64,000 nt of DNA, taken from a virus. Its lineage: Duplodnaviria; Caudoviricetes. This document shows positions 34,736 to 50,836 of this stretch, in pieces. Both the position numbers and the translations under genes were made by a program. The DNA lies in the IMG/VR virus record IMGVR_UViG_3300025450_001231; one strand, given 5' to 3'. The notes beneath the pieces were generated by a model. That model was not told where the DNA came from. It was given only the letters and a program-made list of their open reading frames with translations, and ran no database searches. Within the stretch, counting starts at the first letter, position 1; the number at the start of each line of letters is the position of its first letter.

Positions 34736-35308
34736 GCATCGTTAACTCAGTTGGTATAAAAACATAGACCTATGCTAAATATATGTGGAGGTCTATACTA
34801 TGCCAAGTGGAATAAAAGGAAGCAACAGAAAATATAGTTGCCTATATTGTAATAAAGAAAACCTGTGGGGACATAGCAAAATTAATAAATTTTGTAATAA
34901 TGTGTGCCAAGGACAATACAAATGGGAAAACGAAACTATAGATAGAATCGAAAAAGGTGAGGTTCCGGGAGGATCACCTTCTCTAAAAAAATACTTAATA
35001 GAAAAGTTTGGAGAAAAGTGTTTCGAATGTGGACAAGAAAGTATTTGGAATAACAAGTCTCTGGTGCTACAATTAGATCACATAGACGGTGATAGTGATA
35101 ACAACTATCCAATGAATTTAAGATTACTTTGCCCAAACTGCCATACTCAAACAGAAAATTTTGGCAGTAAAGGTAAAGGAAGCAGATACAAGAAGATTAC
35201 AAAGCGTAATCAGTATTTGAGAGAATATAAGAGCCTGGGTGCGTAGAGAGGTGATACGTCTCCTTTACACGGAGAGCGATACTGGTTCGAGTCTCTCACG
35301 ATGCACCA
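34736..35308 (+). pseudogene. tRNA-Val(TAC) split by an HNH cassette
   Basis: 5' piece GCATCGTTAACTCAGTTGGTA (34736-56) is complementary to acceptor ACGATGC-A-CCA (ends 35308); TCTCC-TTTACAC-GGAGA arm lies after the HNH. Confidence 0.7.
34800..35246 (+). CDS. HNH homing endonuclease
   Basis: CLYC...FCNNVC Zn motif; CFECG...LQLDHIDGDSDNNYPMNLRLLCPNCHTQT; GGAGG RBS before ATG 34800. Confidence 0.9.
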   Translation: MPSGIKGSNRKYSCLYCNKENLWGHSKINKFCNNVCQGQYKWENETIDRIEKGEVPGGSPSLKKYLIEKFGEKCFECGQESIWNNKSLVLQLDHIDGDSDNNYPMNLRLLCPNCHTQTENFGSKGKGSRYKKITKRNQYLREYKSLGA

Positions 35309-35407: not shown

Positions 35408-36202
35408 ATGAAATTAAATGTTGTTTTACGCACTTGTGATCGTACAAGTTTACAAAGCGATCGTATCGTACCTAAAAATGAGTGTGTATGGCGATGCCTG
35501 AATTCTCTGAGTAGAAGTTTAGAAAAATCCAAAGTAGATTTTCAATTGCACATAGTAGACGATTATTCAAGTGCAGAAACAGTTGATAAAATACAAACTA
35601 TTGCTCCCAAGGGCACAACATTTGATTTACTACCCGAACGAGATCAAACTGGTCTCAATGGTAAACAAAAATCAAGATACTCAGTTAAACAGGCCTACGA
35701 TTATATTCACCGGTTGCCCGAAAATGAATTGGTCTATATAGTGGAAGATGACTACTTGCACTATCCTGACAGCATTAAACTTATGATTGCTGCTTATGAA
35801 TATTTTGTTAGTCTTGATACTAGTATGAGTATAGGAATATTCCCCCAAGATTTTAATCAGATGTACCCACATCCTGAAAATCCATTTAACCACGTATATG
35901 TAAGGCCTTGCATAGTACTTCCCGGGCCTGACCGTTACTATAGAACCACTTGGTACACACAAGAATCTTTTTTAGTCGCCAAATCATTGATTACCAAATA
36001 CCGAGATGGCTTTGATAAGCTATTGAAAATTGGCTCAGATGATGTTTCATGGGAAGGCAGTAGTTTAAGTACAGTTTGGAATAAACCTGATGTTAAAATG
36101 TTAATGCCCTTGGGCACACACACAATACATTTAGGTGCTGAAAGAGACATATCTTTCTTTGTCAAAGATTGGCAAAAACTTTGGGAGCGAAATCGAGTAT
36201 GA
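35408..36202 (+). CDS. GT-A fold glycosyltransferase (GT2-like)
   Basis: CLNSL...HIVDDYSS, VYIVEDDYLH (DxD-like). Confidence 0.7.
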   Translation: MKLNVVLRTCDRTSLQSDRIVPKNECVWRCLNSLSRSLEKSKVDFQLHIVDDYSSAETVDKIQTIAPKGTTFDLLPERDQTGLNGKQKSRYSVKQAYDYIHRLPENELVYIVEDDYLHYPDSIKLMIAAYEYFVSLDTSMSIGIFPQDFNQMYPHPENPFNHVYVRPCIVLPGPDRYYRTTWYTQESFLVAKSLITKYRDGFDKLLKIGSDDVSWEGSSLSTVWNKPDVKMLMPLGTHTIHLGAERDISFFVKDWQKLWERNRV

Positions 36203-37191
36203 ACTATTTGGTAGTCGGGGCAGGATTCAGTGGTGCCACAGTTGCTAGAATGTTAGCAGAACAAGGGCACACTATCACAGTAATAGATCAACGTCCACAC
36301 ATTGGTGGTAATGCATACGATTATGTTGACCAATACGGTCTGAGAGTACACAAATACGGTCCTCATTTGTTTCACACCAGCAATAAAAAAGTTTATGATT
36401 GGTTGAGTAGATTCACCGAGTGGGTACCTTACGAACACTATGGTAAAGCATTGTTAGCCGACGGTACTTATGTGCCTTGGCCCGCTAACCTAAATACCTT
36501 GGATCGTGTTCCTGCAGATGATTATGTCAAAACTTTTATCGAACCTTACTCTACTAAAATGTGGGGCAAGTACTATAAAGAGTTAGATCCTGAAGTGTTG
36601 AATAGGGTCAGGATTCGCGATAATCGTGACAATCGGTATTACGAAGATACTTATCAAGTGTTTCCTGCAAACGGGTACGAAGCATTGTTTACAAATATAT
36701 TTGATCATCCAAACATCACAGTGAAATTGTCTACTCCGTTTGACCGAACATTGGAAACAGCGTTTGATCATACATTTAACAGTATGGCCATCGATGAATA
36801 CTATGATTACTGTTACGGTGCATTGCCCTATCGTTCAATAAAGTTTCATCATTATAGTTTGCCTGTGCCTCATTTGTTTCCTACTACAACTGTTAATTTT
36901 ACTCACGACGGTCCTTACACCCGTGCTACAGAATGGAAACACATTTCAGCACACGGAGAAAATCCCCACTATACATCAATCACCGTAGAAGAGCCCTGTG
37001 ACCCGGCAGAAGTCAACGGAGAAAAATATTACCCAGTGCTGACTCCTGCAAATAAACTGTTGCATAAAAACTACAAAGCCATACCCAATGATCGTGTGAC
37101 TTTTATTGGTAGATGCGGTAATTATGTCTACTTGGATATGCATCAAGCAATATCTTCTGCTATGGCAATTGTTGACTATTATTCCAAATAG
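36199..37191 (+). CDS. glf: UDP-galactopyranose mutase
   Basis: VVGAGFSG, HIGGNAYD, VHKYGPHLFHT, LPYRSIKF, YYPV, GRCGNYVYLDM; start MNYL at 36199. Confidence 0.95.
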   Translation: MNYLVVGAGFSGATVARMLAEQGHTITVIDQRPHIGGNAYDYVDQYGLRVHKYGPHLFHTSNKKVYDWLSRFTEWVPYEHYGKALLADGTYVPWPANLNTLDRVPADDYVKTFIEPYSTKMWGKYYKELDPEVLNRVRIRDNRDNRYYEDTYQVFPANGYEALFTNIFDHPNITVKLSTPFDRTLETAFDHTFNSMAIDEYYDYCYGALPYRSIKFHHYSLPVPHLFPTTTVNFTHDGPYTRATEWKHISAHGENPHYTSITVEEPCDPAEVNGEKYYPVLTPANKLLHKNYKAIPNDRVTFIGRCGNYVYLDMHQAISSAMAIVDYYSK

Positions 37192-37206
37192 TGTTATAAT
37201 AACAGT

Positions 37207-37683
37207 ATGGAAAAAATACAACCAAAACTTTATGTATTAATCGGAGTACCGGCTAGCGGTAAAAGCACGTGGGTCAACGCCCAAAATTGGTCAAATGATT
37301 GTGCTATTGTCAGCACAGACTATTGGGTAGAGCGTGAAGCCAAGAGTCGAGGTGTTACTTATTCAGAAATTTTTGAAGAGTATATGCCTACTGCACTGGA
37401 GTTGATGCTTCATATGGTAGAACTTGCCTACGAAGAAGGTCGTGATATTATATGGGATCAAACCAGTACTACAGTATCCAGTCGTCTAAGAAAAATAAAG
37501 TTACTGCCCGATTACTATAAAATTGCGGTAGTGTGTAAAACCCCGCCGATGAGTGAAATAATGACCAGAGTGAACAACAGACCTGGTAAAAATATTCCAC
37601 GCGATGTGATTGTGAAAATGATTAAAAATTGGGAAGATCCTACCCTTGAAGAAGGATTTGACGAAATTTGGAATATAAACTAA
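37207..37683 (+). CDS. P-loop kinase (AAA_33/polynucleotide kinase-like)
   Basis: GVPASGKST, VSTD, IWDQT...SR. Confidence 0.75.
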   Translation: MEKIQPKLYVLIGVPASGKSTWVNAQNWSNDCAIVSTDYWVEREAKSRGVTYSEIFEEYMPTALELMLHMVELAYEEGRDIIWDQTSTTVSSRLRKIKLLPDYYKIAVVCKTPPMSEIMTRVNNRPGKNIPRDVIVKMIKNWEDPTLEEGFDEIWNIN

Positions 37684-37695
37684 AGGTGTAACATA

Positions 37696-37869
37696 ATGGC
37701 AGGCAAAGCGAAATCAGTTTACTTAACTGTAAACAAAAAAGGGTCCACAAAGACAGAGTTTACCAAAGTATTCTTTGATGCTAAAGCATACAACGAATTT
37801 GTTTCTACAGAAGAGTTTAAGGCTAAATGGCCCGTTGAAGAATATAACATAATAAAAGAAACCTATTAG
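37696..37869 (+). CDS. Hypothetical protein (57 aa)
   Basis: MAGKAKSVYLTVNKKG...YNIIKETY fills the gap; AAGG RBS. Confidence 0.65.
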   Translation: MAGKAKSVYLTVNKKGSTKTEFTKVFFDAKAYNEFVSTEEFKAKWPVEEYNIIKETY

Positions 37870-37889
37870 TAAAATCAAAGGAGGCAACT

Positions 37890-38474
37890 ATGCCTGGCGT
37901 ATTTTTAGTCAGTGACACACACTTTGGTCACGCAGGAGTCTGTAGATTTATGCGAGATGACGGTATTACAAAATTGCGTCCTTGGGATAACACCGAGGAG
38001 ATGGATGAAGCTATGGTCAAGGCTTGGAATGAACGGGTAAAGACCACTGACAAAGTCTACCATTTGGGAGATGTTGTTATCAATCGTAAGGCCTTGAACA
38101 TTATGCATCGCTTGAACGGAGACAAAGTCCTGATCCGAGGCAATCACGACATCTTCAAAGACGAAGACTATCGTGTGCATTTTCGTGAGTTACGTGCATA
38201 CCACGTGATGAATGGATTGATATTGAGTCACATTCCGGTGCATCCAGATAGTTTGGGCCGATTCGGAACCAATATTCACGGACATTTGCACAGTAACCGT
38301 GTAATGACCTCCGCCGGCACCAAAGCCAAGCCAGAAATTGATGTTAGATACCATTGTGTATGCGTAGAACAAACTCCAGACTTTGCGCCCATCTTGTTTG
38401 AAGATGTGTTAAAAAGAATCACAAACGAAGGCGGTACTATCGGATTTAAGAATGGCAACGGCCCTATAATGTAA
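37890..38474 (+). CDS. Calcineurin-like metallophosphoesterase
   Basis: SDTHFGH, HLGDV, RGNHD, LSHIP, IHGHLH motifs. Confidence 0.9.
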   Translation: MPGVFLVSDTHFGHAGVCRFMRDDGITKLRPWDNTEEMDEAMVKAWNERVKTTDKVYHLGDVVINRKALNIMHRLNGDKVLIRGNHDIFKDEDYRVHFRELRAYHVMNGLILSHIPVHPDSLGRFGTNIHGHLHSNRVMTSAGTKAKPEIDVRYHCVCVEQTPDFAPILFEDVLKRITNEGGTIGFKNGNGPIM

Positions 38475-38496
38475 ATACTACACTAATCTATAAACT

Positions 38497-40275
38497 ATGA
38501 AATACGTAACACCCCCAAAACAACCATTACAAACAAACACACAAACGCTGATTCCAACCGGTGTTAATTTAGTTGAACTAAATGCAACTGCAATGGAATT
38601 ACACAACAACCAACAATACGATGCTGCCAGAGAAAAATATCAAGCAGTACTTGCAGTTGAGCCGAATTATTTTGATGCATTGCACCTATTAGGTCTAATG
38701 GAGGCTCAGGCTGGAAATGTAGAGTTGGGTTTGGAATTGTTAGCCAAAGCAGAAACAGTTAATCCCGATGTTGCTTTCTTGTACAACAATCGTGCAGGCA
38801 TTTATAAACTAAACGGAGATCCGGCAGCTGCGTTAGAAGACTGCGATCGAGCACTAAAGCTCAACCCCAGATTTACTGAAGCACAATTGAATCGTAGTCT
38901 AATATTATTAGATTTACGCAGACTTGACGAAGCATTGGCTGCTTCCGAAAAAGCATTAAAAATGTTGAACCATCCCAGTATCCACAATACTCGCGGAGCA
39001 ATCTTGAAAGAGATGGACAAGATTAATGAAGCACAGGCCAGTTTTACTGCTGCAGTAAAGTTAGATAAAACATATCCCGATAGTTATAACAATCGTGGAG
39101 TTATCCTGATGGAAATGGGAAAAACTGAAGATGCTATCAAAGATTTTCTGACGGCATTGGAACTTAACCCATCGCATAATGCTGCCCGTGCAAATTTAGC
39201 AGGTGCATATTCAGACGCACATAAATTTGATTTAGCAATAGAAACCTACAATCAGGTATTAGAAGCAAATCCAACCGACAATCAAGTTAGAACACATAGA
39301 GCTATGTGTTTGTTAAATCTTGGAGATTTTGAAAATGGTTGGGCAGAATACGAAGCTCGTTGGTACGTGACTGAAGGTCCTATGTATAGAAGTTTACCAG
39401 AATACGAGCAACCTTTGTGGACAGGTGAACAACCATTAGAAGATCGTATACTTTTATTGTACTCAGAACAAGGACACGGCGACGGATTGCATTTTAGTAG
39501 ATATGCAAAATATGCAGTTGAAGTATTAGGTGCAAAAAAGGTGTATCTACAAGTAGACGAATCTTTAGTTGAATTGATGGAAAGTCTATCTCCTAAAATA
39601 GAAGTAATTCCATTCCAACAGTCTGCAGTTATTCAATTTGATTATCATTGCAGTCTCATGAGTATGCCTTTGGCCTGTAAAACCAGTTTAGATAATATTC
39701 CTTATCCTGACAAGTATTTGAAAGCCCCTACTAAAAAAGTAAATGCTTGGAAAAAGAAATTAGGCACTACTGATAAATTGCGTGTGGGTCTATGCTGGAA
39801 TGGTGGATACAGAGCTGAGCCACAGTTTCAAATTTCCAATAATAGACGTAACATTTCTTTTGGCAGATACAAGAGTTTTGCCGACGACAATGTTGAGTTT
39901 TACAGTTTACAAAAAGGTGAAGCTGCAGAAGCTGAATTAGCAAAAACACTTAAAGATAAAAAGTGGAAAGGTCCAAGACCTATTAATTTTGTAGATGAAT
40001 TCAAGTCTTATGCTGATACTGCGGCCTTGATTATGAACCTAGATCTAGTTATTACTGTTGACACCAGCGTAGCACATTTGGCAGCTGCAATGGGCAAAAA
40101 AGTATGGATTTTAAGTAGATTTGATGGTTGCTGGAGATGGATGTTGGAAAGATCCGACTCTCCTTGGTATGACAGTATAACACTTTATAGACAAACTGAA
40201 TTTGGCGTATGGGATGATGTGATTGAGCGAGTTGCCAAAGACCTGCACTCATTGAGTGATAATTTTTCAAAGTAA
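38497..40275 (+). CDS. TPR-repeat protein with C-terminal GT-B (GT9-like) glycosyltransferase domain
   Basis: Several TPRs; YSEQGHGDGLHFSRY, RVGLCWNGG, LDLVITVDTSVAHLAAAMGK. Confidence 0.85.
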   Translation: MKYVTPPKQPLQTNTQTLIPTGVNLVELNATAMELHNNQQYDAAREKYQAVLAVEPNYFDALHLLGLMEAQAGNVELGLELLAKAETVNPDVAFLYNNRAGIYKLNGDPAAALEDCDRALKLNPRFTEAQLNRSLILLDLRRLDEALAASEKALKMLNHPSIHNTRGAILKEMDKINEAQASFTAAVKLDKTYPDSYNNRGVILMEMGKTEDAIKDFLTALELNPSHNAARANLAGAYSDAHKFDLAIETYNQVLEANPTDNQVRTHRAMCLLNLGDFENGWAEYEARWYVTEGPMYRSLPEYEQPLWTGEQPLEDRILLLYSEQGHGDGLHFSRYAKYAVEVLGAKKVYLQVDESLVELMESLSPKIEVIPFQQSAVIQFDYHCSLMSMPLACKTSLDNIPYPDKYLKAPTKKVNAWKKKLGTTDKLRVGLCWNGGYRAEPQFQISNNRRNISFGRYKSFADDNVEFYSLQKGEAAEAELAKTLKDKKWKGPRPINFVDEFKSYADTAALIMNLDLVITVDTSVAHLAAAMGKKVWILSRFDGCWRWMLERSDSPWYDSITLYRQTEFGVWDDVIERVAKDLHSLSDNFSK

Positions 40276-40314: not shown

Positions 40315-41286
40315 ATGTCACTCAAACAAGAAATTCTCAAATATAGCCGCCAAGAAACTATGGCACCACTATCCAGCTGGTTCGAAGCCCAATTGGACGA
40401 TCTAATTGCACAAAATGTCTATGTAGATCAAAACACGCTGGAAGATACTGGCCGCAAATTGGTTAGCGGACTAATTGCCTATGCCAAAAAATACAACATT
40501 CAAACTGCCGCTATCGGTATGAGTGGTGGTGTAGACAGTGCACTGACTGCTGCGTTATTCAAAGCCGCAGGATGGCGAGTAATAGGTATCACTATGCCTA
40601 TTCACCAAAAACAAGAAGAAACTGACCGTGGGGTTGAAGCTTGTAAAGCACTAGGCATTAGCCACAAACACGTGGATTTGACCAAATCATATGATACACT
40701 ACTAAAAAGTATCGCAGAGCACGACCCTGCTATTAACAATGCTGACCAAGCATTACGCAGAGGCAATCTAAGAGTCAGATTGCGTATGATGACCGTCTAC
40801 AACGAAGCCAGTGCTAACAAAGGTTTGGTTGCCAGTACTGATAACTTCAGCGAGTTGGCTGCTGGATTTTGGACACTACACGGCGATGTAGGTGATGTTG
40901 CTCCTATTCAAAGTCTGCTAAAAAGTTGGGAAGTTCCTAAGCTAGCAGAAATCTACGGTGTACCTGACAGCACAGTATTTGCTCGTCCCACAGACGGACT
41001 TGGTATTACTGATGGCGACGAAGATCAATTTGGATTCAGTTATCTTGAATTTGATCTAGTACTAATGAAACTGTGTCAAGCACCTAACTTGACTACACGT
41101 TTGGAAATGATCAACTACTTGAATCTGCCAGATGACGAGCACGTGGTCAAAGTAAATCGTATCTTGGATCGTATCAAGGGCAGTACATTCAAGAGAGCCA
41201 ATCCCTACAATTTAGATCATCCACTACAACCAGATCGTTATCCTGGTCTAAAAAGTGTTGACACTAACTTGTGGACCGCTATCTAA
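40315..41286 (+). CDS. nadE: NH3-dependent NAD+ synthetase
   Basis: IGMSGGVDS, GNLRVRLRM, TDNFSE...GFWTLHGD, PTDGL, DEDQFG.SY. Confidence 0.9.
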   Translation: MSLKQEILKYSRQETMAPLSSWFEAQLDDLIAQNVYVDQNTLEDTGRKLVSGLIAYAKKYNIQTAAIGMSGGVDSALTAALFKAAGWRVIGITMPIHQKQEETDRGVEACKALGISHKHVDLTKSYDTLLKSIAEHDPAINNADQALRRGNLRVRLRMMTVYNEASANKGLVASTDNFSELAAGFWTLHGDVGDVAPIQSLLKSWEVPKLAEIYGVPDSTVFARPTDGLGITDGDEDQFGFSYLEFDLVLMKLCQAPNLTTRLEMINYLNLPDDEHVVKVNRILDRIKGSTFKRANPYNLDHPLQPDRYPGLKSVDTNLWTAI

Positions 41287-41345: not shown

Positions 41346-41783
41346 ATGATTTACACCATCAAAAATATTTCTGACCCTCTGGCCACATATCTCAAAGACG
41401 ATCCTGTGCGCCCACACATCCCCCATGACCAACGCTTCGGAGCCAATAGACAAGTATTTGCCTTGACCGACGAAGTCAACACAGTTAAGGCTGTTATTTG
41501 TGCTAGATTTTGCACAGGTATTCCCAGTACCGAACAAGAGCTACTAGCCGATAATAGCACTGACCCTGACACAGTGGTATTCTATACCATATGGAGTTAT
41601 CGACCTGGAGCCGGCCAACAGCTGATACGCGAAGGACTTCAATTGGTAAAAAAAGAGTTGCCCACTGTTAAAAGATTTGTTACACTTAGTCCTCAAACGG
41701 AATTAGCAAAACGCTTCCATTTGAAGAACGGTGCTAATGTATTCAGGATTAACACTGATACTGTTAATTACGAATATATATAG
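41346..41783 (+). CDS. Hypothetical protein, possible GNAT-like fold
   Basis: FYTIWSYRPGAGQQLI, TLSPQTELAKRFHLKNGA; late promoter at 41313. Confidence 0.55.
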   Translation: MIYTIKNISDPLATYLKDDPVRPHIPHDQRFGANRQVFALTDEVNTVKAVICARFCTGIPSTEQELLADNSTDPDTVVFYTIWSYRPGAGQQLIREGLQLVKKELPTVKRFVTLSPQTELAKRFHLKNGANVFRINTDTVNYEYI

Positions 41784-41806: not shown

Positions 41807-42580
41807 ATGAATTCTGTAAAAAACTATGTGGTGTGTGCTCACCGCCGAATAAAAAGTACCAAATGGATTTGGAAAGATACTAAAGACGAGGGCGATATCT
41901 ACGAACTGTATCGACAGATGTGTTTGAACAGTTTGGCCAGTGCAAGACATTTTCTCGAAGGTGATTGGGAATATGTTGTACTTGATGAAGAAATTGAACA
42001 CATCAATGACGCAATGCCATTGAATAATGATCGTGTGCACGACCTTTGGCACCGTGAACCCTGCAACATTCTATGGGTCGGACCTGACGTGCAGTTTGTT
42101 AAGCCTACAAAACTGTTTGGCGAGTTCAATGAATTCAGACTGTTTAACTGGACTGATCCCAAAGTCTGGTACGAACCTAACCAATATAATGCTCGATTCG
42201 ATAACTTGTTTAACAATGATCTACAGTATTATCCCAGCAATATGGATCCTAAGTTGTGGGAAATTGAACGTGAAATGCGTGCAGCTTGGGACACAACTGA
42301 CGGAATGGGCAGCTATAACAATCAACAGATCATCCATAATACCATGTTCTGGAGTCAGGGATTAGAGTGGGAAGATGCACATCGTCCTGACTTGTTTTAT
42401 CAAGCACAGTGGATTCCCAATTGGGCCAGCATAGCTACTCAAGACGAGTGGAACGGTTGCAAATACGAAGATGCACAAGTGATCCATTGGCACAGCAGTC
42501 GCCACGCACCCACCAAGCTAGCTTGTATGCAACAGGTTAACGAAGCGTTGGGAATCGAACCTGCCACTGAACTAAAATGA
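41807..42580 (+). CDS. Putative nucleotide-diphospho-sugar transferase
   Basis: ILWVGPDVQF (DxD-like) and C-terminal VIHWH typical of GT-A folds; sugar cluster context. Confidence 0.5.
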   Translation: MNSVKNYVVCAHRRIKSTKWIWKDTKDEGDIYELYRQMCLNSLASARHFLEGDWEYVVLDEEIEHINDAMPLNNDRVHDLWHREPCNILWVGPDVQFVKPTKLFGEFNEFRLFNWTDPKVWYEPNQYNARFDNLFNNDLQYYPSNMDPKLWEIEREMRAAWDTTDGMGSYNNQQIIHNTMFWSQGLEWEDAHRPDLFYQAQWIPNWASIATQDEWNGCKYEDAQVIHWHSSRHAPTKLACMQQVNEALGIEPATELK

Positions 42581-43371
42581 AAATAGCAGTTTTAGGTGCA
42601 AGAGGATTCTTAGGATCTTTTCTCTGTCGTTGGCTGAATAAAAAGCACATAGTCATAGAAGTCACAAGAAATATACTCGATCTCACTGACTACATTAGTG
42701 TTAGCCAATGGCTAATGACCGTACAACCTGATGCAGTTATTAATTGTGCTATCAGTGGCGGTGGTCAGGGAATAGAAGATATTAGTTATTCGGATGTCCA
42801 GCGTGATCTACAGATATTTCTTAACTTTTACAACAATACCGGTGGTTTTAAGTACATAAATATTAGTAGTGGTGCTGAGTTTGATCGTCGTACAGATATT
42901 GACAAAAAACCAGAATCTGCGATACTGCTTTCCCATCCACTGGAGTCATACGGCTTTACCAAAAACACCATTTCCCGTATGGTTCTCAACAGAGACAATT
43001 TTTATAATCTTAGATTATTTGGTTGCTTTGACCGCACAGATCCCCCATTTAGACTATTCAAAAAGTTTAAGCTACAACAAGCAATTGCTGTAACTGATAG
43101 GTACTTTGACTATATCAGTGCCAGCGATTTTGCACGAGTAGTTGATTACTATCTGCAGGATATTGTGTTGCCCAAAGATATCAATTGTGTATACGAAGAC
43201 AAATTACTGTTAAGCGAACAACTAAAACTGTTTGCAAGATATCACATAACCAACGCTGAGATTAATGTAATTGGCACTGATAATAAAAACTACACAGGCA
43301 ATGGTCAAGTGTTGGCAGATTTGGATATCCTACTAGAAGGATTAATAAAAGGAATTAAAAAATATGAGTAA
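42577..43371 (+). CDS. NAD-dependent sugar epimerase/reductase (extended SDR)
   Basis: GARGFLG, SSGAEF, YGFTK (YxxxK), LRLFGCF. Confidence 0.85.
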   Translation: MKIAVLGARGFLGSFLCRWLNKKHIVIEVTRNILDLTDYISVSQWLMTVQPDAVINCAISGGGQGIEDISYSDVQRDLQIFLNFYNNTGGFKYINISSGAEFDRRTDIDKKPESAILLSHPLESYGFTKNTISRMVLNRDNFYNLRLFGCFDRTDPPFRLFKKFKLQQAIAVTDRYFDYISASDFARVVDYYLQDIVLPKDINCVYEDKLLLSEQLKLFARYHITNAEINVIGTDNKNYTGNGQVLADLDILLEGLIKGIKKYE

Positions 43372-44308
43372 AAAAGTTGTTTATGTAACAGGTTGCTTGG
43401 GATTTATTGGAATCCACGTGACCCGGGCTTGCCTTGAACAAGGATGGTATGTAACTGGTGTGGATAAAATTACCTACGCCAGTAATACAAAATTCCTAGA
43501 TGAGTTCTTGGCAAATCCCAATTTCCAGTTTATACAAAAAGACATTAACGATTTGGATAGACTGTATGAGTGTGATTATATCATTAATACTGCCGCAGAA
43601 ACACACGTGGATAACAGTATTATGAGCAGTGATGTGTTCTTAAAAAGCAATGTAAACGGAGTGCATCACTTGTTGAAGCTGATTACCGAAAAAGCCAAAT
43701 ACAAAATGCCCACACTACTGCATTTTAGTACAGACGAAGTCTACGGTGATATCCTTGAAGGCAGTCACGTGGAAACAGATTTGTTAAAACCCAGTAATCC
43801 CTATAGTGCTACTAAAGCAGCCGCAGATATGTTGATTTTGGCTTGGGCAAGAACTTTTAACTTACCATACGTTATTGTTCGTCCTACCAACAACTATGGC
43901 ATTGGCCAGTATGTGGAAAAACTTATTCCCAAAAGTTGTAAACATTTGACCATTGGCAAACAAATTGATCTACACGATCGTGGCCTTCCTGTTCGCACTT
44001 GGTTGCACGCAGAAGATACTGCTCGTGCAGTATTAACCATTATCAACAGTGGGGTTCAAAACGAAATCTACAACATCAGTGGCAACGCTGAATTGCAAAA
44101 CATTGTGGTAGTTCAAAAGATTATCGAATACTTTAACGGTGACAAGGACTATGCCAAATATCTTTTTGATATGGTGCGTGTGGGACAGGATCAAAGATAC
44201 AGTATCGATGATACTAAACTCAAAACTTTGGGCTGGCAACCACAAGCAAAGTTTGACAAAGAGCTGAAGAAGATAGTACAATACTACAAGAACAACTTTA
44301 TTTGGTGA
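43364..44308 (+). CDS. rmlB: dTDP-glucose 4,6-dehydratase
   Basis: GCLGFIG, DKITYAS, AAETHVDNSI, STDEVYG, YSATKAAAD, NNYGIGQY.EK. Confidence 0.9.
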   Translation: MSKKVVYVTGCLGFIGIHVTRACLEQGWYVTGVDKITYASNTKFLDEFLANPNFQFIQKDINDLDRLYECDYIINTAAETHVDNSIMSSDVFLKSNVNGVHHLLKLITEKAKYKMPTLLHFSTDEVYGDILEGSHVETDLLKPSNPYSATKAAADMLILAWARTFNLPYVIVRPTNNYGIGQYVEKLIPKSCKHLTIGKQIDLHDRGLPVRTWLHAEDTARAVLTIINSGVQNEIYNISGNAELQNIVVVQKIIEYFNGDKDYAKYLFDMVRVGQDQRYSIDDTKLKTLGWQPQAKFDKELKKIVQYYKNNFIW

Positions 44309-44311
44309 TCA

Positions 44312-45631
44312 ATGGAAGAAATATTAAAACTCGTGCGTGAATATGCAGAACAAAAATCTGCAAAGAAAACTTGGACTGCTGGTAAGGATTTTGTCAACTA
44401 TGCAGGTGCTTACTATGATGCGGAAGAATATGCCGCAGGTGTAGAAAGTCTATTAGGTGGCTGGCTGGCCATGGGAGATGCTGGATTAAAATTCGAGCGT
44501 AGATTCCCCAAGCAGTTTGGTAAACAGTTGGGCATTGTTACCAACAGTGGTAGTAGCAGTAACTTGTTAATGATGAGTGCACTAACCAGCAAGCGAGGAC
44601 ATAACCTGCCCAAAGGCACAAAAGTGCTGATGCCTATTGCAGGATTTCCCACTACACTAAACCCTACACTACAAGTGGGATTTACTCCAGTGTTTGTGGA
44701 TATTGAATTGGATTCTCTGAATCTCGATCTTGATGCAGTTGAACAAGCATTGGCTGCAGATCCAGAAATTCGTGTTATTACTTTTGCCCACGTGTTGGGT
44801 AATCCTCCCAATATGGATCGATTGATGCAGTTGGTCGACAAGTATAATCTTATACTACTAGAAGATTGTTGTGATGCATTGGGCAGTACTTATGATGGCA
44901 AGCCCTTGGGTAGTTTTGGTCTAATGGCCAGTTGCAGTTTTTATCCTGCACACCATATGACCATGGGCGAAGGCGGATATGTTGCTACAGATGATGCCAA
45001 TACAGATGTAATACTTCGCAGTTTCCGTGAATGGGGCAGAGGTTGTTACTGTGTTGGACCAGATGCCAACAAACTCAAATGCGGTACTTGCGGCAAGCGT
45101 TTTAACAATTGGATTGAAACACTACCTGATGAAATATTCGACCACAAGTATGTTTACGATGAGATCGGCTATAACCTAAAACCAATCGAACTACAATGTG
45201 CTATGGGTCTAAAACAGTTGGATAAACTGCCAGAGATTCACGCACTGCGCCGTCGTAACTATCAATTGCTGTATGATATCTACAGCAAGTACGAAGAATT
45301 CTTTATTGTTCCCAAGCCCCAGGCCAAGAGTGATCCCAGCTGGTTTGCTTTCCCTATTACCATTAGGTCAAGCGAACACTTCAAACGCAGTGACATTGTG
45401 GACTATCTCGAAGAGAATCTAATTCAAACTCGTCCATACTTTGCTGGCAATATTATGCTACAACCCGCATACAGTCACTTGATGGATCCACAGTTGGCCA
45501 AGAACAACTTCCCCAATGCTACCCACGCTATGACAAATACTTATTTCCACGGTACAAGTCCGGTGATTACACCCGAACAAATTGCTTACATTGGAGAAAA
45601 AGTAGATGGTTTTATGAGTCTATTCACATGA
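44312..45631 (+). CDS. rfbH: NDP-4-keto-6-deoxyglucose 3-dehydrase (E1, RfbH/DdhC)
   Basis: NSGSSSNL, EDCCDALG, SFYPAHHMTMGEGG (His replaces Lys), Cys-rich GCYC...CGTC Fe-S segment, YFAGNI. Confidence 0.9.
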   Translation: MEEILKLVREYAEQKSAKKTWTAGKDFVNYAGAYYDAEEYAAGVESLLGGWLAMGDAGLKFERRFPKQFGKQLGIVTNSGSSSNLLMMSALTSKRGHNLPKGTKVLMPIAGFPTTLNPTLQVGFTPVFVDIELDSLNLDLDAVEQALAADPEIRVITFAHVLGNPPNMDRLMQLVDKYNLILLEDCCDALGSTYDGKPLGSFGLMASCSFYPAHHMTMGEGGYVATDDANTDVILRSFREWGRGCYCVGPDANKLKCGTCGKRFNNWIETLPDEIFDHKYVYDEIGYNLKPIELQCAMGLKQLDKLPEIHALRRRNYQLLYDIYSKYEEFFIVPKPQAKSDPSWFAFPITIRSSEHFKRSDIVDYLEENLIQTRPYFAGNIMLQPAYSHLMDPQLAKNNFPNATHAMTNTYFHGTSPVITPEQIAYIGEKVDGFMSLFT

Positions 45632-46797
45632 AAAAATTAAGTACTGCCGCAATGAACATTGATGGACAACCAATGTTCAAATATTTAGATCGTGCCCGTA
45701 AGCTAGAAGCTGAAGGTCGTTCAATGATACATATGGAGATTGGTGATCCAGATTTCTGCACACCACCAAACATCACTATGGCGGCTGTTCGAGCGTTAGC
45801 TGAAGGACGTACACACTATACCAGCAGTTGGGGCGACTTGGAGTTTAGAGAAACCATTAGAACTGCTACTTACAAAAGTAGAAAGTTTATGCCAGACTTG
45901 AATCAAGTATTGGTAGTACCCGGTGCTAACATTGGCATTTACTATGCGGTGTTTACACTTTGCGATCCCGGAGAGGAAGTATTGGTACCAGATCCTGGCT
46001 TTGCTACCTACTACAGTTCAATTAAAATGTGCGGAGTAAACGCAGTTCGTGTTCCTTTATTAGAGGAAAACGGATTTAGAATGCAGGCCACAGATGTACG
46101 TGCACGTATCACTGACAAAACACGTTTACTGATTCTAAACAGTCCCAACAATCCCACTGGTGCAGTAATGACTCGGCAGGAGTTGAAAGACATCTACGAT
46201 CTTTGTGTAGAAAAAGATATCTACTTATACAGTGATGAAATTTACAGTCGTATGATTTACGATGACTATGACTTTAGCAGTCCTGCACAGTATGATCAAT
46301 GTCGCACACACGTTATATTAAGTAATGGATTCAGCAAGGCCTTTGCTATGACTGGATGGCGATTAGGTGCACTAATCGGTCCCCCTGAAGTTATGGAACG
46401 TATGAGTCAGTTGTTACAAACCACCAGTAGTTGCGTTAGTAGTTTTATTCAAAGTGCAGGTACCGAAGCCATACGTGGTCCACAGGATGCAGTATATTCA
46501 ATGATGAAAACCTATGAGCAACGCAGGGATCTATTGGTAGAGGGCCTAAACAATGTGCCTGGATTCTCTTGCCAAAAGCCTGGCGGAGCATTTTATGTGT
46601 TTCCCAATATTACAGGCACTGGACTTACTGATGTTGAAGTATGCGAACAACTAATGGATCAAGCTGGGGTAGTTACTGTTCCAGGCAGTTGTTTTGGAGA
46701 ACACGGAGCCGGACACATTAGACTATGCTATGCTACAGACAGAAATAGCATAATGTCGGCAATTGCAAGAATTAAACAATGGGCAGAAAAATTATGA
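45628..46797 (+). CDS. Class I/II PLP-dependent aminotransferase (aspartate aminotransferase-like)
   Basis: EIGDPDF, NSPNNPTG, SDEIY, GFSKAFAMTGWRLG, PGGAFY. Confidence 0.9.
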   Translation: MKKLSTAAMNIDGQPMFKYLDRARKLEAEGRSMIHMEIGDPDFCTPPNITMAAVRALAEGRTHYTSSWGDLEFRETIRTATYKSRKFMPDLNQVLVVPGANIGIYYAVFTLCDPGEEVLVPDPGFATYYSSIKMCGVNAVRVPLLEENGFRMQATDVRARITDKTRLLILNSPNNPTGAVMTRQELKDIYDLCVEKDIYLYSDEIYSRMIYDDYDFSSPAQYDQCRTHVILSNGFSKAFAMTGWRLGALIGPPEVMERMSQLLQTTSSCVSSFIQSAGTEAIRGPQDAVYSMMKTYEQRRDLLVEGLNNVPGFSCQKPGGAFYVFPNITGTGLTDVEVCEQLMDQAGVVTVPGSCFGEHGAGHIRLCYATDRNSIMSAIARIKQWAEKL

Positions 46798-47813
46798 GAG
46801 TATGCGATTGGATTGCGGAATATCTTTATAGTCAAGGAGTAGAACGTGTACACGGCCTTATGGGCGGTGGTGCAAGCGGTCTAAACGATGGCTTTATCAA
46901 ACAAGGACAAATTGGTTATATTTGTTATCACCACGAACAGGGTGCAGGTCATGCTGCCATTGGAGAAGCAAAATACACGGGCCGTTTGTCAGTAGTCAAT
47001 CCCACAACTGGTTGTGCTGGCACCAACTGTGCTACCAGTGTACTAGATGCTTGGCAAGACAGTACACCTGTGTTGTTTCTCAGCGGTAATGTCAGACTAA
47101 ACACCTGTAGTGGTTATATCAATCAAACACAAGGTATTAACATTCGCAAGTACGGTATTCAAGAACACCACGTGGTTGATACCTACAAGTCAATGACCAA
47201 ATTCAGTTACTTTGTCACTGATGTAAAAGATGTTGCGTATGTTATGCAGTATGCGGTGTATATTGCACAGGCCGGAAGACCAGGTCCAGTTTGGGTTGAT
47301 ATTCCCGGAGACATACAAACTGCAGAAATGCCCGCACGCTACAGAGAATACACTCCACCGACATTGCCCACAGTGGCAAAAAATGCGGTAGATTATTCTG
47401 CAATTAAAACTGCCATAGCAAATAGTCAACGGCCTATTGTATTGGCAGGCTACGGCATCAGACAAGCCAATTGCGTAGATGAATTTGTTGAATTTATCGA
47501 ACAGTATCAAATGCCTTTTGTTAGTACATATGGAGCGAGAGACTATATTACAGACTCGCACTCTTTAAGTATTGGTGCAGTGGGCATCAAAGGCAGTCGT
47601 GCCGGTAACTTTGCACTAACCAATGCTGATTTGTTATTGGTGTTGGGCAGTAGTCTGGGTGGTAGTGTTATTGGCTACGATCCAAAACAGTTTAGTCCTG
47701 CAAGTTATAAAATTGTAGTGGATATTGATTCAAACGAATTAAAAAAGAATATTGTTAAAATTGATGCTGCTTACAACATCAGCTTAAAAGAATTTTTCGG
47801 AGCAATGCTATGA
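46794..47813 (+). CDS. ThDP-dependent enzyme, N-terminal (PYR + central) half
   Basis: HHEQGAGHAA, TTGCAGTN, AWQDSTP, GRPGPVWVDIP. Confidence 0.9.
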   Translation: MRVCDWIAEYLYSQGVERVHGLMGGGASGLNDGFIKQGQIGYICYHHEQGAGHAAIGEAKYTGRLSVVNPTTGCAGTNCATSVLDAWQDSTPVLFLSGNVRLNTCSGYINQTQGINIRKYGIQEHHVVDTYKSMTKFSYFVTDVKDVAYVMQYAVYIAQAGRPGPVWVDIPGDIQTAEMPARYREYTPPTLPTVAKNAVDYSAIKTAIANSQRPIVLAGYGIRQANCVDEFVEFIEQYQMPFVSTYGARDYITDSHSLSIGAVGIKGSRAGNFALTNADLLLVLGSSLGGSVIGYDPKQFSPASYKIVVDIDSNELKKNIVKIDAAYNISLKEFFGAML

Positions 47814-48544
47814 CACGTGAAGAATGGATCAATAAATGTAATGATTGGAAATCTGCTTGGCCAGTTATTCAGCCCGAATACTTTGATGATGCCGATGGTA
47901 CGGTGAATATCTACGCAGTATTAGATGCAATTAACCAACACAGCGGTGCATACCAAGTGTTAATGGGAGATGCTGGCAGTATCAGCTACGCAGGCCCAGT
48001 AGCATTGAAGGCCAAAGCAGGTCAAAGATTTGTGTTTAACCCTGCTCAAGCTGATATGGGATGGGCACTGCCTGCGGCCATTGGAGTGGCACTTGCTGGA
48101 GGCAATGTTATTAGTATCATCGGTGACGGTAGTTTTATGAGTAACTTACAGGAGCTAGCAGTTGTTCGCCAACACAACCTAAATATCAAGTTTATTATTT
48201 TGAATAACAGTGGATACTTGAGTATTAGAAACACACAAACCAAATACTTTAACGGTCGAGTGTTTGGTACTAGTAACGAAACTGGACTTTGGTTCCCTAA
48301 ATTCAAAGACATTGCAGATTCGTTTGAAATTGGTTATGCAGAAGTCAATGGTGTTGCGGGATTAGCTGACTTTGCCCAATTATTATCAGCACCAGGTCCT
48401 GCTATCATCAACTGTATTTGCAAAGCCGAACAGGAAATTTTGCCAGCACAGGCATTGAAAAATGGCAAGCAAGCTGGGTTACACGATATGACACCATTCT
48501 TGACAGACGAAGAATTATCTGCGGAAATGATAGTCAAAGTCTAA
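47810..48544 (+). CDS. ThDP-dependent enzyme, C-terminal (PP) half
   Basis: MGWALPAAIG, IGDGSFMSNLQEL...NNSGYLSIR ThDP motif; ATGA overlap with N-half. Confidence 0.9.
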   Translation: MTREEWINKCNDWKSAWPVIQPEYFDDADGTVNIYAVLDAINQHSGAYQVLMGDAGSISYAGPVALKAKAGQRFVFNPAQADMGWALPAAIGVALAGGNVISIIGDGSFMSNLQELAVVRQHNLNIKFIILNNSGYLSIRNTQTKYFNGRVFGTSNETGLWFPKFKDIADSFEIGYAEVNGVAGLADFAQLLSAPGPAIINCICKAEQEILPAQALKNGKQAGLHDMTPFLTDEELSAEMIVKV

Positions 48545-49746: not shown

Positions 49747-49775
49747 TTGACACAAATTCTGTCTTTTGCTATAAT
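49747..49775 (+). promoter_or_regulatory. Sigma70 early promoter
   Basis: TTGACA(49747)-17 nt-TATAAT(49770). Confidence 0.85.
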
Positions 49776-49807: not shown

Positions 49808-50836
49808 ATGTCACAGTTTATTCAAATTACACAAGGCACTTATCGTAATCAGCCAGTTAACGGTATGGTGTTTGAGCTAGTAGAACAGTATAAATCAGGT
49901 GCAAATGGTGGTTTTGTTACTGTTAAAAATAACGGCACTTTCCCAGATTTTCCAGAAAAACTTCGCATTAGATGCGGCGGAATGGACAGTTACAATTTTA
50001 CAACTTCGACGGAGAATACAACAATGGTAAAAACAGTTACCGCACCAATGGCAGTAGTAGAAACAGATGAGCAAGCCATTGAGCGTATTAGAGAGCGTTT
50101 TGAAATCCTTACAGAAATGACCAAAGCTGCTACCAATGGCGACATTCGTGCTATGATTGTGTCAGGCCCCCCTGGAGTTGGTAAGAGTTTTGGCGTAGAG
50201 CAAGAAATAGAAAAGGCTTGCTTGTTCGACCAAATTGCAGGCAAGAAACTCCGCGCAGAAGTTGTAAAAGGTTCTGCAACTGCTCTTGGATTGTATAGTA
50301 CACTCTACAAGTATTCGGACAGTAATTGTGTGTTGGTGTTTGACGACTGTGACAGTATTTTGCTAGATGATGTTGCACTCAACTTGCTTAAAGGTGCGCT
50401 TGACTCAGGTAAGAAACGCAAAATCTCTTGGTTGTCAGACAGCAATTTGTTGCGTAGAGAAGGTATCCCAGATAGTTTTACATTCAGCGGTAGTGTTATC
50501 TTTATTACCAACTTGAAGTTTGACCAAATGAAATCTCAAAAGTTACGTGACCACTTGGATGCACTCCAGTCACGTTGCCACTATTTGGATTTGACATTGG
50601 ATACACAGCGTGATAAATTGTTGCGTATTCAGCAGATTGCCAAAGATGGCGTATTGTTTTCGGACTATGATTTCGAGCAAGTTACACAAGACGAGATCAT
50701 TGAGTTTATGAATGAGAACAAAGACCGTTTGCGTGAATTGAGTTTGCGTATGGCTCTTAAGATTGCAGATTTGCGCAAGAGTTTCCCTACTCGCTGGAAA
50801 GCAATGGCTACCACAACTTGTATGAAAGCTGCTTAA
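49808..50836 (+). CDS. AAA+ family ATPase
   Basis: SGPPGVGKS Walker A, LVFDDCD Walker B, IFITN sensor, ALQSR arginine finger. Confidence 0.9.
   Translation: MSQFIQITQGTYRNQPVNGMVFELVEQYKSGANGGFVTVKNNGTFPDFPEKLRIRCGGMDSYNFTTSTENTTMVKTVTAPMAVVETDEQAIERIRERFEILTEMTKAATNGDIRAMIVSGPPGVGKSFGVEQEIEKACLFDQIAGKKLRAEVVKGSATALGLYSTLYKYSDSNCVLVFDDCDSILLDDVALNLLKGALDSGKKRKISWLSDSNLLRREGIPDSFTFSGSVIFITNLKFDQMKSQKLRDHLDALQSRCHYLDLTLDTQRDKLLRIQQIAKDGVLFSDYDFEQVTQDEIIEFMNENKDRLRELSLRMALKIADLRKSFPTRWKAMATTTCMKAA

Follow-up and report, generated by a model that had tools for sequence, protein, structure and literature searches.

What would a phage do with a thiamine diphosphate (ThDP)-dependent enzyme encoded among genes for nucleotide-sugar tailoring? 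The question arises from IMG/VR record IMGVR_UViG_3300025450_001231, a stretch of 64,000 nucleotides (the window) in which seven plus-strand genes, with overlapping or abutting ends, occupy 41807-48544. We argue that this module is probably a phage-borne variant of the yersiniose/erwiniose/caryophyllose-type pathway, predicted to yield a branched 3,6-dideoxy sugar. Gene families of the window proteins were called by Pfam and NCBIfam profile searches, and the module reads as follows (aa, amino acids):

41807-42580, plus strand: predicted GT-A fold glycosyltransferase, 257 aa (no Pfam match; assigned by fold)
42577-43371, plus strand: extended short-chain dehydrogenase/reductase (SDR), RmlD-like, 264 aa (Pfam Epimerase and RmlD_sub_bind)
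43364-44308, plus strand: RmlB-type nucleoside diphosphate (NDP)-glucose 4,6-dehydratase, 314 aa (TIGR01181, 308.6 bits)
44312-45631, plus strand: E1/RfbH pyridoxamine 5'-phosphate (PMP)/[2Fe-2S] NDP-4-keto-6-deoxyhexose 3-dehydrase, 439 aa (NF011936, 454.8 bits)
45628-46797, plus strand: class I pyridoxal 5'-phosphate (PLP) aminotransferase, like aspartate aminotransferase (AspAT) and aromatic aminotransferases, 389 aa (Pfam Aminotran_1_2, 232.6 bits)
46779/46794-47813, plus strand: ThDP enzyme subunit 1 (PYR and middle/TH3 domains), 344/339 aa (Pfam TPP_enzyme_N and TPP_enzyme_M)
47810-48544, plus strand: ThDP enzyme subunit 2 (PP domain), 244 aa (Pfam TPP_enzyme_C)

A coupled run in a jumbo phage

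A preliminary description of this DNA had placed five gene types (SDR, dehydratase, E1, aminotransferase and ThDP enzyme) in a coupled run at 42577-48544, and the Pfam and NCBIfam searches found all of them there on the plus strand. The module begins one gene before the SDR, at the glycosyltransferase gene, whose end shares an ATGA overlap with the SDR start. Such ATGA overlaps lie at 42577, 45628, 46794 and 47810; the other junctions are an 8-nucleotide overlap at 43364 and a 3-nucleotide gap at 44312. Subunit 1 of the ThDP enzyme probably starts at the ATG at 46794 rather than at 46779, because its homologues begin there and because this start overlaps the aminotransferase stop as ATGA.

That the DNA comes from a phage was borne out by PHROG matches to tail sheath, terminase large subunit (TerL), tail fibre and helicase, as well as by the likeness of TerL to that of jumbo phages. 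The window TerL is 55% identical to that of PA5oct-like Pseudomonas jumbo phages and 49-51% identical to those of Atu_ph07 and Phosso, and the N-terminal half of the window ThDP enzyme is recorded on contigs of up to 264,485 bp. On these comparisons we assign the window to a jumbo phage.

The ThDP enzyme groups with YerE-like carboligases

The best NCBIfam names for the ThDP halves are acetolactate synthase large subunit, and in virome surveys such genes are recorded under ilvB as auxiliary metabolic genes (PMC8226683). Read in this way, the ThDP enzyme and the aminotransferase would form a branched-chain amino-acid auxiliary unit (acetolactate synthase plus transaminase) beside an unbranched 3,6-dideoxyhexose pathway. 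We consider this extremely unlikely on several grounds. All models of acetohydroxyacid synthase (AHAS) scored far below their cut-offs, the halves reaching 190 and 77 bits with TIGR00118 against a cut-off of 538. The best solved relative of both halves in the PDB was 8rph, identified as JanthE (PMC12188165), at 164.7 and 114.8 bits, compared with 147.8 and 62.6 bits for E. coli AHAS I. Genomes with the cluster-linked enzyme also carry a separate, true AHAS; in two of them the cluster-linked ThDP homologue matched at 283 or 263 bits and the genome's own AHAS at 126 or 111 bits. No ilvH/N, ilvC or ilvD gene is adjacent, and the aminotransferase is of class I, not of the class IV IlvE type.

Phylogeny pointed the same way. 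The preliminary description had asked whether the ThDP halves would cluster with YerE or with anabolic AHAS. We constructed a maximum-likelihood tree of 141 sequences, comprising 135 YerE-like rows together with IlvB, IlvI, two further AHAS, Gcl and Oxc; the named YerE and ErwE were not among its rows. The YerE-like group of 135 rows was split from IlvB, IlvI, the two AHAS, Gcl and Oxc at an SH-aLRT support of 99, placing the halves outside the AHAS clade. Within the group, the phage ThDP enzymes formed one clade (support 100) nested in a cellular subclade of 77 rows (support 94).

Gene linkage also argues against an amino-acid unit. We compared the window with 86 related loci drawn from metagenomes and IMG/VR, and with a cellular set consisting of the 80 best homologues from one-genome-per-species contigs. 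E1 and the 4,6-dehydratase are linked to the ThDP genes in most of the 86 phage loci, and an E1 homologue lies within 10 kb of the ThDP gene in 46 of the 80 cellular homologues.

The motifs needed for ThDP catalysis are in place. The activating Glu (E53) in the HHEQ motif of subunit 1 is invariant, and subunit 2 has a GDGS...NN motif, GDGSFMSNLQELAVVRQHNLNIKFIILNN (GDG-X(24-27)-NN). Judged by these scores, the tree and the linkage, the ThDP enzyme is YerE-like and not an AHAS. The phage pair is predicted to be a carboligase that would add a 2-oxoacid-derived acyl unit onto a sugar ketone.

The carboligase is split in phages

YerE-like carboligases are usually single polypeptides of about 580-620 aa; in the window there are instead two open reading frames (ORFs). 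The break coincides exactly with the linker that joins the middle and PP domains. An ATGA overlap between the two subunits is kept in 80 of the 86 phage and metagenome loci; in five of the 86 the two are fused into one gene of 598-614 aa, in which the linker is longer. By contrast, the cellular homologues are fused in 76 of 79 cases, and the three unfused ones are ORF-extraction artefacts or a probable phage contig. The split form is widespread: the N-terminal half is represented by more than 120 protein clusters at 70-79% identity, all of about 335-342 aa, on contigs of up to 488 kb. JanthE (8rph/8rpi/8rpj; Janthinobacterium), which accepts ketones and 2-oxoacid donors of several lengths (PMC12188165, PMC12247030), is a single chain of 619 aa with a CDG motif, visible in the alignment, whereas its phage counterpart carries the canonical GDG and is divided at the middle/PP linker.

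Two contigs binned with bacteria deserve mention. L087, a contig of 2,358 bp binned in a Hellea sp. metagenome-assembled genome (MAG), carries split, phage-type ThDP genes (55% and 53% identity) that fall within the phage clade; the contig probably comes from a phage and was binned with the bacterium in error. In a Magasanikiibacteriota MAG (L133:10001-15400), two YerE-like ThDP genes lie about 1.5 kb apart together with E1 and SDR genes, and the two enzymes may use different branch donors.

Dehydratase, E1 and SDR

The dehydratase scored 308.6 bits with TIGR01181, compared with 62 bits for the CDP-type model TIGR02622 (NCBIfam). Its top PDB matches were all dTDP-glucose 4,6-dehydratases, the best being 2hun at 243 bits, and these matches identify it as a predicted dTDP-type rather than CDP-type enzyme. 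The dehydratase that accompanies E1 in the phage is thus of the dTDP type, while the cellular counterparts are of the CDP type.

E1 had been described as a 3-dehydrase with the His-for-Lys substitution and a Cys-rich Fe-S segment, and the alignments agreed. The protein aligns end to end with Yersinia E1 (PDB 3bcx, 348 bits); the His of its 'YPAHH' motif falls on His220 of 3bcx, and AHH matches the AHH of the wild-type chain. C187, C245, C247, C260 and H214/H215 are shared by all of the 73 homologues compared, from phages and cells alike, indicating that the Fe-S and PMP chemistry would be retained and that an electron donor would be needed.

The phage E1 is divergent (455 bits with NF011936, the RfbH model, a small margin over the cut-off of 423). 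It is 38-40% identical to Yersinia E1, the last Cys spacing is 4-5 residues longer in phages, and there are extra conserved Cys residues at 186, 208 and 257. Such divergence might mean that the E1-like enzyme and its partners act on a heptose, an N-acetylhexosamine derivative or some other nucleotide sugar and make a branched sugar of a different skeleton. We regard this as very unlikely: the module almost always includes the RmlB-type 4,6-dehydratase (64-80% identical across most related phage loci), the solved relatives of this dehydratase point uniformly to dTDP-glucose, and the run contains no heptose or N-acetylhexosamine pathway genes.

The SDR has intact motifs, with GxxGxxG present as GARGFLG and YxxxK as SYGFTK. 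In most phage loci, as in the bacterial clusters L099, L107 and L118, the ThDP gene is followed by an SDR gene. By motif and gene position it is a candidate YerF-type reductase of the branch ketone.

NDP-glucose and electrons would come from the host

Gene absences were checked in five related phage records, three of them complete. No NTP_transferase (PF00483) was found in the three complete relatives, and one incomplete record gave a borderline match of 21.1 bits. Neither an E3-type reductase (PF00175, NAD_binding_1) nor a plant-type ferredoxin (PF00111) was found in any of the five records. The absence of E3 from the window had been noted previously; because it holds genome-wide in the complete relatives, it is not an effect of the window edge. 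With no nucleotidyltransferase and no E3 in the complete relatives, both NDP-glucose and reducing equivalents must come from the host. General pairs of ferredoxin or flavodoxin with a reductase serve the E1 homologue SpnQ, which would be a precedent for such borrowing.

An E3-like gene was found by tblastn with the L089 gene near only one of the 80 cellular loci, L089 itself. We also considered the aminotransferase as a substitute for E3 and rejected the idea, since E3 is absent near 79 of the 80 cellular clusters, with or without an aminotransferase.

An aminotransferase gene paired with the carboligase gene

The aminotransferase had been counted among the pathway genes. It is indeed present in the run at 45628-46797, but it is not a fixed part of the module: about half of the phage loci carry it, and the tree cannot be explained with fewer than six gains or losses. 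In L019 its absence coincides exactly with a recombination breakpoint, the nucleotide identity to L013 being 94% downstream and 80% upstream. In the cellular set, an aminotransferase 44-57% identical to that of the phage lies directly upstream of the ThDP gene in 11-13 loci, from Campylobacterota, Pseudomonadota, Patescibacteria, Verrucomicrobiota, Bacillota and a methanogen. In the tree, the 11 cellular ThDP enzymes that are linked to an aminotransferase all belong to the 77-row subclade that includes the phage clade, and none to the 52-row clade. Gene linkage thus makes the aminotransferase an accessory member of the module, yet part of a gene pair that appears conserved in bacteria and archaea.

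The best PDB matches of the aminotransferase were 1dju/1gd9 (277 bits). An alignment of 40 phage and cellular orthologues has 81 invariant positions, including N175, D203, Y206, K237, R245 and R365. We take R365 to be the Arg that binds the alpha-carboxylate, mapped through the GH(I/V)RLxYA motif of Thermus AspAT.

Two roles were weighed for this enzyme. In the first, it would make the 2-oxoacid donor from an amino acid, to which we give about an even chance. This role is favoured because the residues of a canonical amino-acid aminotransferase are invariant, because the SDR that always stands alongside the aminotransferase already serves the branch ketone, and because a neighbour of ErwE makes a non-pyruvate donor (PMC9306805). 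Phages that lost the gene would either receive the donor from the host or use pyruvate.

In the second, the aminotransferase would act after the carboligase and convert the C1' ketone to an amine, giving a 4-C-(1-aminoalkyl)-3,6-dideoxyhexose that a GNAT-like neighbour could acylate. Transaminated acetyl branches are known in natural-product sugars, kibdelomycin being a named example (PMC12247030), the adjacency of the aminotransferase and ThDP genes would fit product processing equally well, and there is a small GNAT/MCD-like gene upstream in the window. We nevertheless hold branch amination to be unlikely. The enzyme is of the canonical AspAT/aromatic aminotransferase type, with the full set of residues for alpha-amino acids invariant, and an SDR that would draw on the same ketone is found with it in the window as well as in L099, L107, L118 and L004, which makes amination the less parsimonious option. 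Moreover, the GNAT-like gene is found in loci without an aminotransferase (L036-41, L049, L051 and L056) and in no cellular cluster of the aminotransferase type.

A candidate glycosyltransferase and its acceptor

The single-sequence AlphaFold2 (AF2) model of the 257-aa protein had a predicted local distance difference test (pLDDT) score of 36 and was not usable. With an alignment of 17 homologues, AF2 gave a model with a pLDDT of 81 and a predicted TM-score (pTM) of 0.84. Its best Foldseek matches (E about 4e-6, TM about 0.5) were glycogenin, the catalytic domain of UGGT, BoGT6a and A64R, a capsid glycosyltransferase of PBCV-1; the Foldseek probability was 1.0 for glycogenin, UGGT and A64R. 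G92-x-D94 and H227 are invariant across the family and its GT34 neighbours; with a single conserved Asp, the DXD motif is atypical. On the strength of the model we assign the protein to the GT-A fold and consider it a candidate transferase of the branched sugar. About 30 phage loci have a homologue (70-83% or about 33% identity) within the module; in others a GT34 gene holds that position. The 80 cellular loci yielded no homologue; L099 instead has GtrA and GT2 genes.

The run contains no lipid-carrier or flippase genes, which mildly favours a soluble acceptor such as a virion protein. No ThyA-family gene was found in the five related phage records, weak negative evidence that would make DNA glycosylation through hydroxymethyl-pyrimidines unlikely.

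Genes around the module

Two genes directly upstream recur in related phages:

40315-41286, plus strand: NadE-like PP-loop amidoligase (TIGR00552, 138 bits against a cut-off of 63.65)
41346-41783, plus strand: GNAT/MCD-like protein, 145 aa (Pfam MCD C-terminal domain, 33.6 bits; viral MCD/Acetyltransf_1-like clusters)

Of the 86 phage loci, about 24 have a homologue of the NadE-like gene, which is of the NAD+ synthetase type, beside the sugar module (33-72% identity; three arrangements), and the order of the NadE-like and GNAT-like genes is kept at 60-75% identity in L035, L036-41, L049, L051 and L056. In those same loci the GNAT/MCD-like protein, which belongs to a purely viral family, travels with the NadE-like and GT-A genes. 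Neither gene was found in the 80 cellular loci. Because they recur in phages and never in cellular clusters, we left both out of the proposed pathway. The idea that the NadE-like enzyme amidates a carboxylated branch, formed from 2-oxoglutarate or oxaloacetate as donor, was not supported, since the NadE-like and GNAT-like genes are absent from cellular aminotransferase-type clusters and present in phage loci without an aminotransferase.

Further upstream, 35408-40275 holds other glycan genes: a GT2-like gene, UDP-galactopyranose mutase (Glf), an AAA_33 kinase, a metallophosphoesterase and a 592-aa TPR protein with a GT9-like (GT-B) C-terminus. The glycan built by the phage probably combines a number of different sugars, including galactofuranose. 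At 34785-35246, immediately before this region, is an ORF for a free-standing HNH endonuclease. On the other side, about 1.2 kb downstream of the last module gene, a perfect TTGACA-17-TATAAT promoter with an extended TG (49747-49775) precedes an AAA ATPase gene at 49808. Beyond this downstream promoter, the promoter and terminator scan defined no operon ends.

Distribution and origin of the module

The core shared by the 86 viral and metagenome loci consists of E1, the two ThDP subunits, the RmlB-type dehydratase and, mostly, the SDR, in several gene orders. Its carriers span at least two TerL lineages: a complete relative of 337 kb has a TerL 60-76% identical to that of the window, and for two complete relatives, of 203 and 222 kb, TerL identity to the window is only about 31-32%. 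Among deposited phages the module was found in none of 50,697 records, with no close homologue and a best match of 34%, and megablast of the region against them gave no match.

The TerL of the 337-kb relative matches in two pieces about 960 bp apart (G001:C1:332605-335120; residues 4-276 and 274-520). This terminase gene appears to be interrupted by an inserted element; the window TerL is uninterrupted. The IMG/VR contigs L073-L084 form a basal phage subclade with split ThDP genes, a far more divergent E1-like gene (36-42% identity), no match to an RmlB-type dehydratase and no aminotransferase; they may act on a different acceptor sugar.

The cellular clusters most like the phage module are those of Methylophilaceae LSUCC0401 (L099) and a Marinamargulisbacteria MAG (L107), with the gene order RfbF-RfbG-RfbH-aminotransferase-ThDP-SDR. 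They share the order E1-aminotransferase-ThDP-SDR with the phage pathway, their ThDP enzymes lie in the cellular subclade nearest the phage clade, and their aminotransferases are those 44-57% identical to the phage one. Unlike the phage module, they are CDP-activated, have their own cytidylyltransferase and a fused ThDP enzyme, and carry GtrA and GT2 membrane-linked transfer genes in place of a soluble GT-A protein. The module was probably copied from bacterial surface-sugar clusters. Our reading is that phages took E1, aminotransferase, ThDP enzyme and SDR from a CDP-type cellular cluster, swapped the dehydratase for one of the RmlB type and divided the carboligase in two, with repeated losses of the aminotransferase afterwards.

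Proposed pathway

Gene content, catalytic motifs, family placement, conservation and linkage were observed directly, and it is on these that the following scheme builds. We infer every substrate, the order of the steps, the part played by the aminotransferase and the acceptor. The substrate would be host-made NDP-glucose, the RmlB-type dehydratase pointing to dTDP-glucose or possibly UDP-glucose. The dehydratase would convert it to NDP-4-keto-6-deoxyglucose, and the PMP/[2Fe-2S] E1 would then remove the C3 oxygen with electrons from a host reductase. The heteromeric, split YerE-like carboligase would decarboxylate a 2-oxoacid and add the acyl unit to the C4 ketone, giving a tertiary alcohol. 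Where present, the class I aminotransferase would make the 2-oxoacid donor from an amino acid, as the aldolase beside ErwE does. Finally, the SDR would reduce the branch ketone, and the linked GT-A glycosyltransferase would hand the sugar to its acceptor.

The preliminary description had suggested a yersiniose-like branched sugar. The E1 residues, the YerE-like grouping of the ThDP enzyme and the intact SDR speak for this, whereas the CDP route of Yersinia is not copied as such. Like the yersiniose A pathway of Yersinia pseudotuberculosis (DdhA-D, E1/E3, YerE and YerF), the module has an E1 with His for Lys and Fe-S Cys residues, an AHAS-fold ThDP enzyme of the E1-linked carboligase kind, and an SDR beside it. 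It differs in that the dehydratase is of the RmlB (dTDP) type and not of the CDP-glucose type (DdhB); neither a cytidylyltransferase (DdhA) nor E3 is present in the window or the complete relatives; the ThDP enzyme consists of two chains; the operon also includes a class I aminotransferase and a GT-A protein; and the carrier is a jumbo phage.

The erwiniose, caryophyllose and gastriose clusters (ErwE with ErwI/ErwJ; MMAR_2332; MygE) offer a model for the pairing of aminotransferase and ThDP enzyme, in that a neighbour makes the donor: the non-pyruvate 2-oxoacid used by ErwE is made by the neighbour-encoded ErwI/ErwJ, a pyruvate aldolase (PMC9306805). In the phage the neighbour is an aminotransferase, so that the donor would be amino-acid-derived, and the erwiniose-type clusters are cellular and CDP-based, with fused enzymes.

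Several points weigh against a branched 3,6-dideoxy sugar as the product. All functional statements about the phage clade draw on sequence, fold, phylogeny and gene linkage. E1 is only just above its cut-off (455 bits, compared with 747 for the bacterial L099 E1), and this low score, with the insert of 4-5 residues in its Cys motif, suggests that it may use a different substrate. Between the phage SDR and the SDRs encoded after the ThDP gene in cellular clusters, identity is only 25-29%. Roughly half of the phage loci have no aminotransferase gene, among them L019, to which L013 is 94% identical in nucleotide sequence from the ThDP genes on, so a dedicated donor is not obligatory or else the host can supply it; in addition, the conserved C-terminal Arg alone leaves room for a non-carboxylate ketone substrate. 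Lastly, two essential steps depend on the host, there being no nucleotidyltransferase, E3 or ferredoxin in the three complete relatives. Having weighed these points, we still consider the branched-sugar pathway the probable function of the module.

A more specific proposal joins several of its parts, and as a conjunction we think it possible rather than probable. The aminotransferase-ThDP pair would define an undescribed class of amino-acid-derived C4 branches on 3,6-dideoxyhexoses, the donor being a 2-oxoacid derived from some amino acid other than alanine. One freshwater jumbo-phage lineage would have adapted a bacterial CDP pathway to host dTDP- or UDP-glucose and split the carboligase into an alpha2-beta2 enzyme, and a soluble GT-A protein would place the sugar on virion proteins rather than on lipid-linked glycans.

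Implications

Other virus glycan machineries, such as that of chlorovirus PBCV-1 with A64R and those for giant-virus fibril sugars, likewise combine sugar-nucleotide tailoring enzymes with a small GT-A protein. They belong to eukaryotic viruses and make known sugars such as rhamnose and viosamine; to our knowledge, none of them includes a branched-chain sugar or a ThDP step. A literature search for phage reports of the pathway, and for aurantose, returned nothing usable. A 2025 review names viruses as unexplored territory for YerE-type branching (PMC12247030).

Listing such genes as 'ilvB acetolactate synthase' auxiliary metabolic genes would misread phage glycobiology as amino-acid metabolism. 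The natural split would provide a ready-made, two-subunit, ketone-accepting carboligase, a class of enzyme sought in biocatalysis for chiral tertiary alcohols, and the aminotransferase-ThDP pair shared with bacteria and archaea points to a class of donor not previously considered. YerE-type branching has so far been described for bacterial surface glycans only; if our reading of the module holds, it would here be a common and conserved trait of uncultured large phages.

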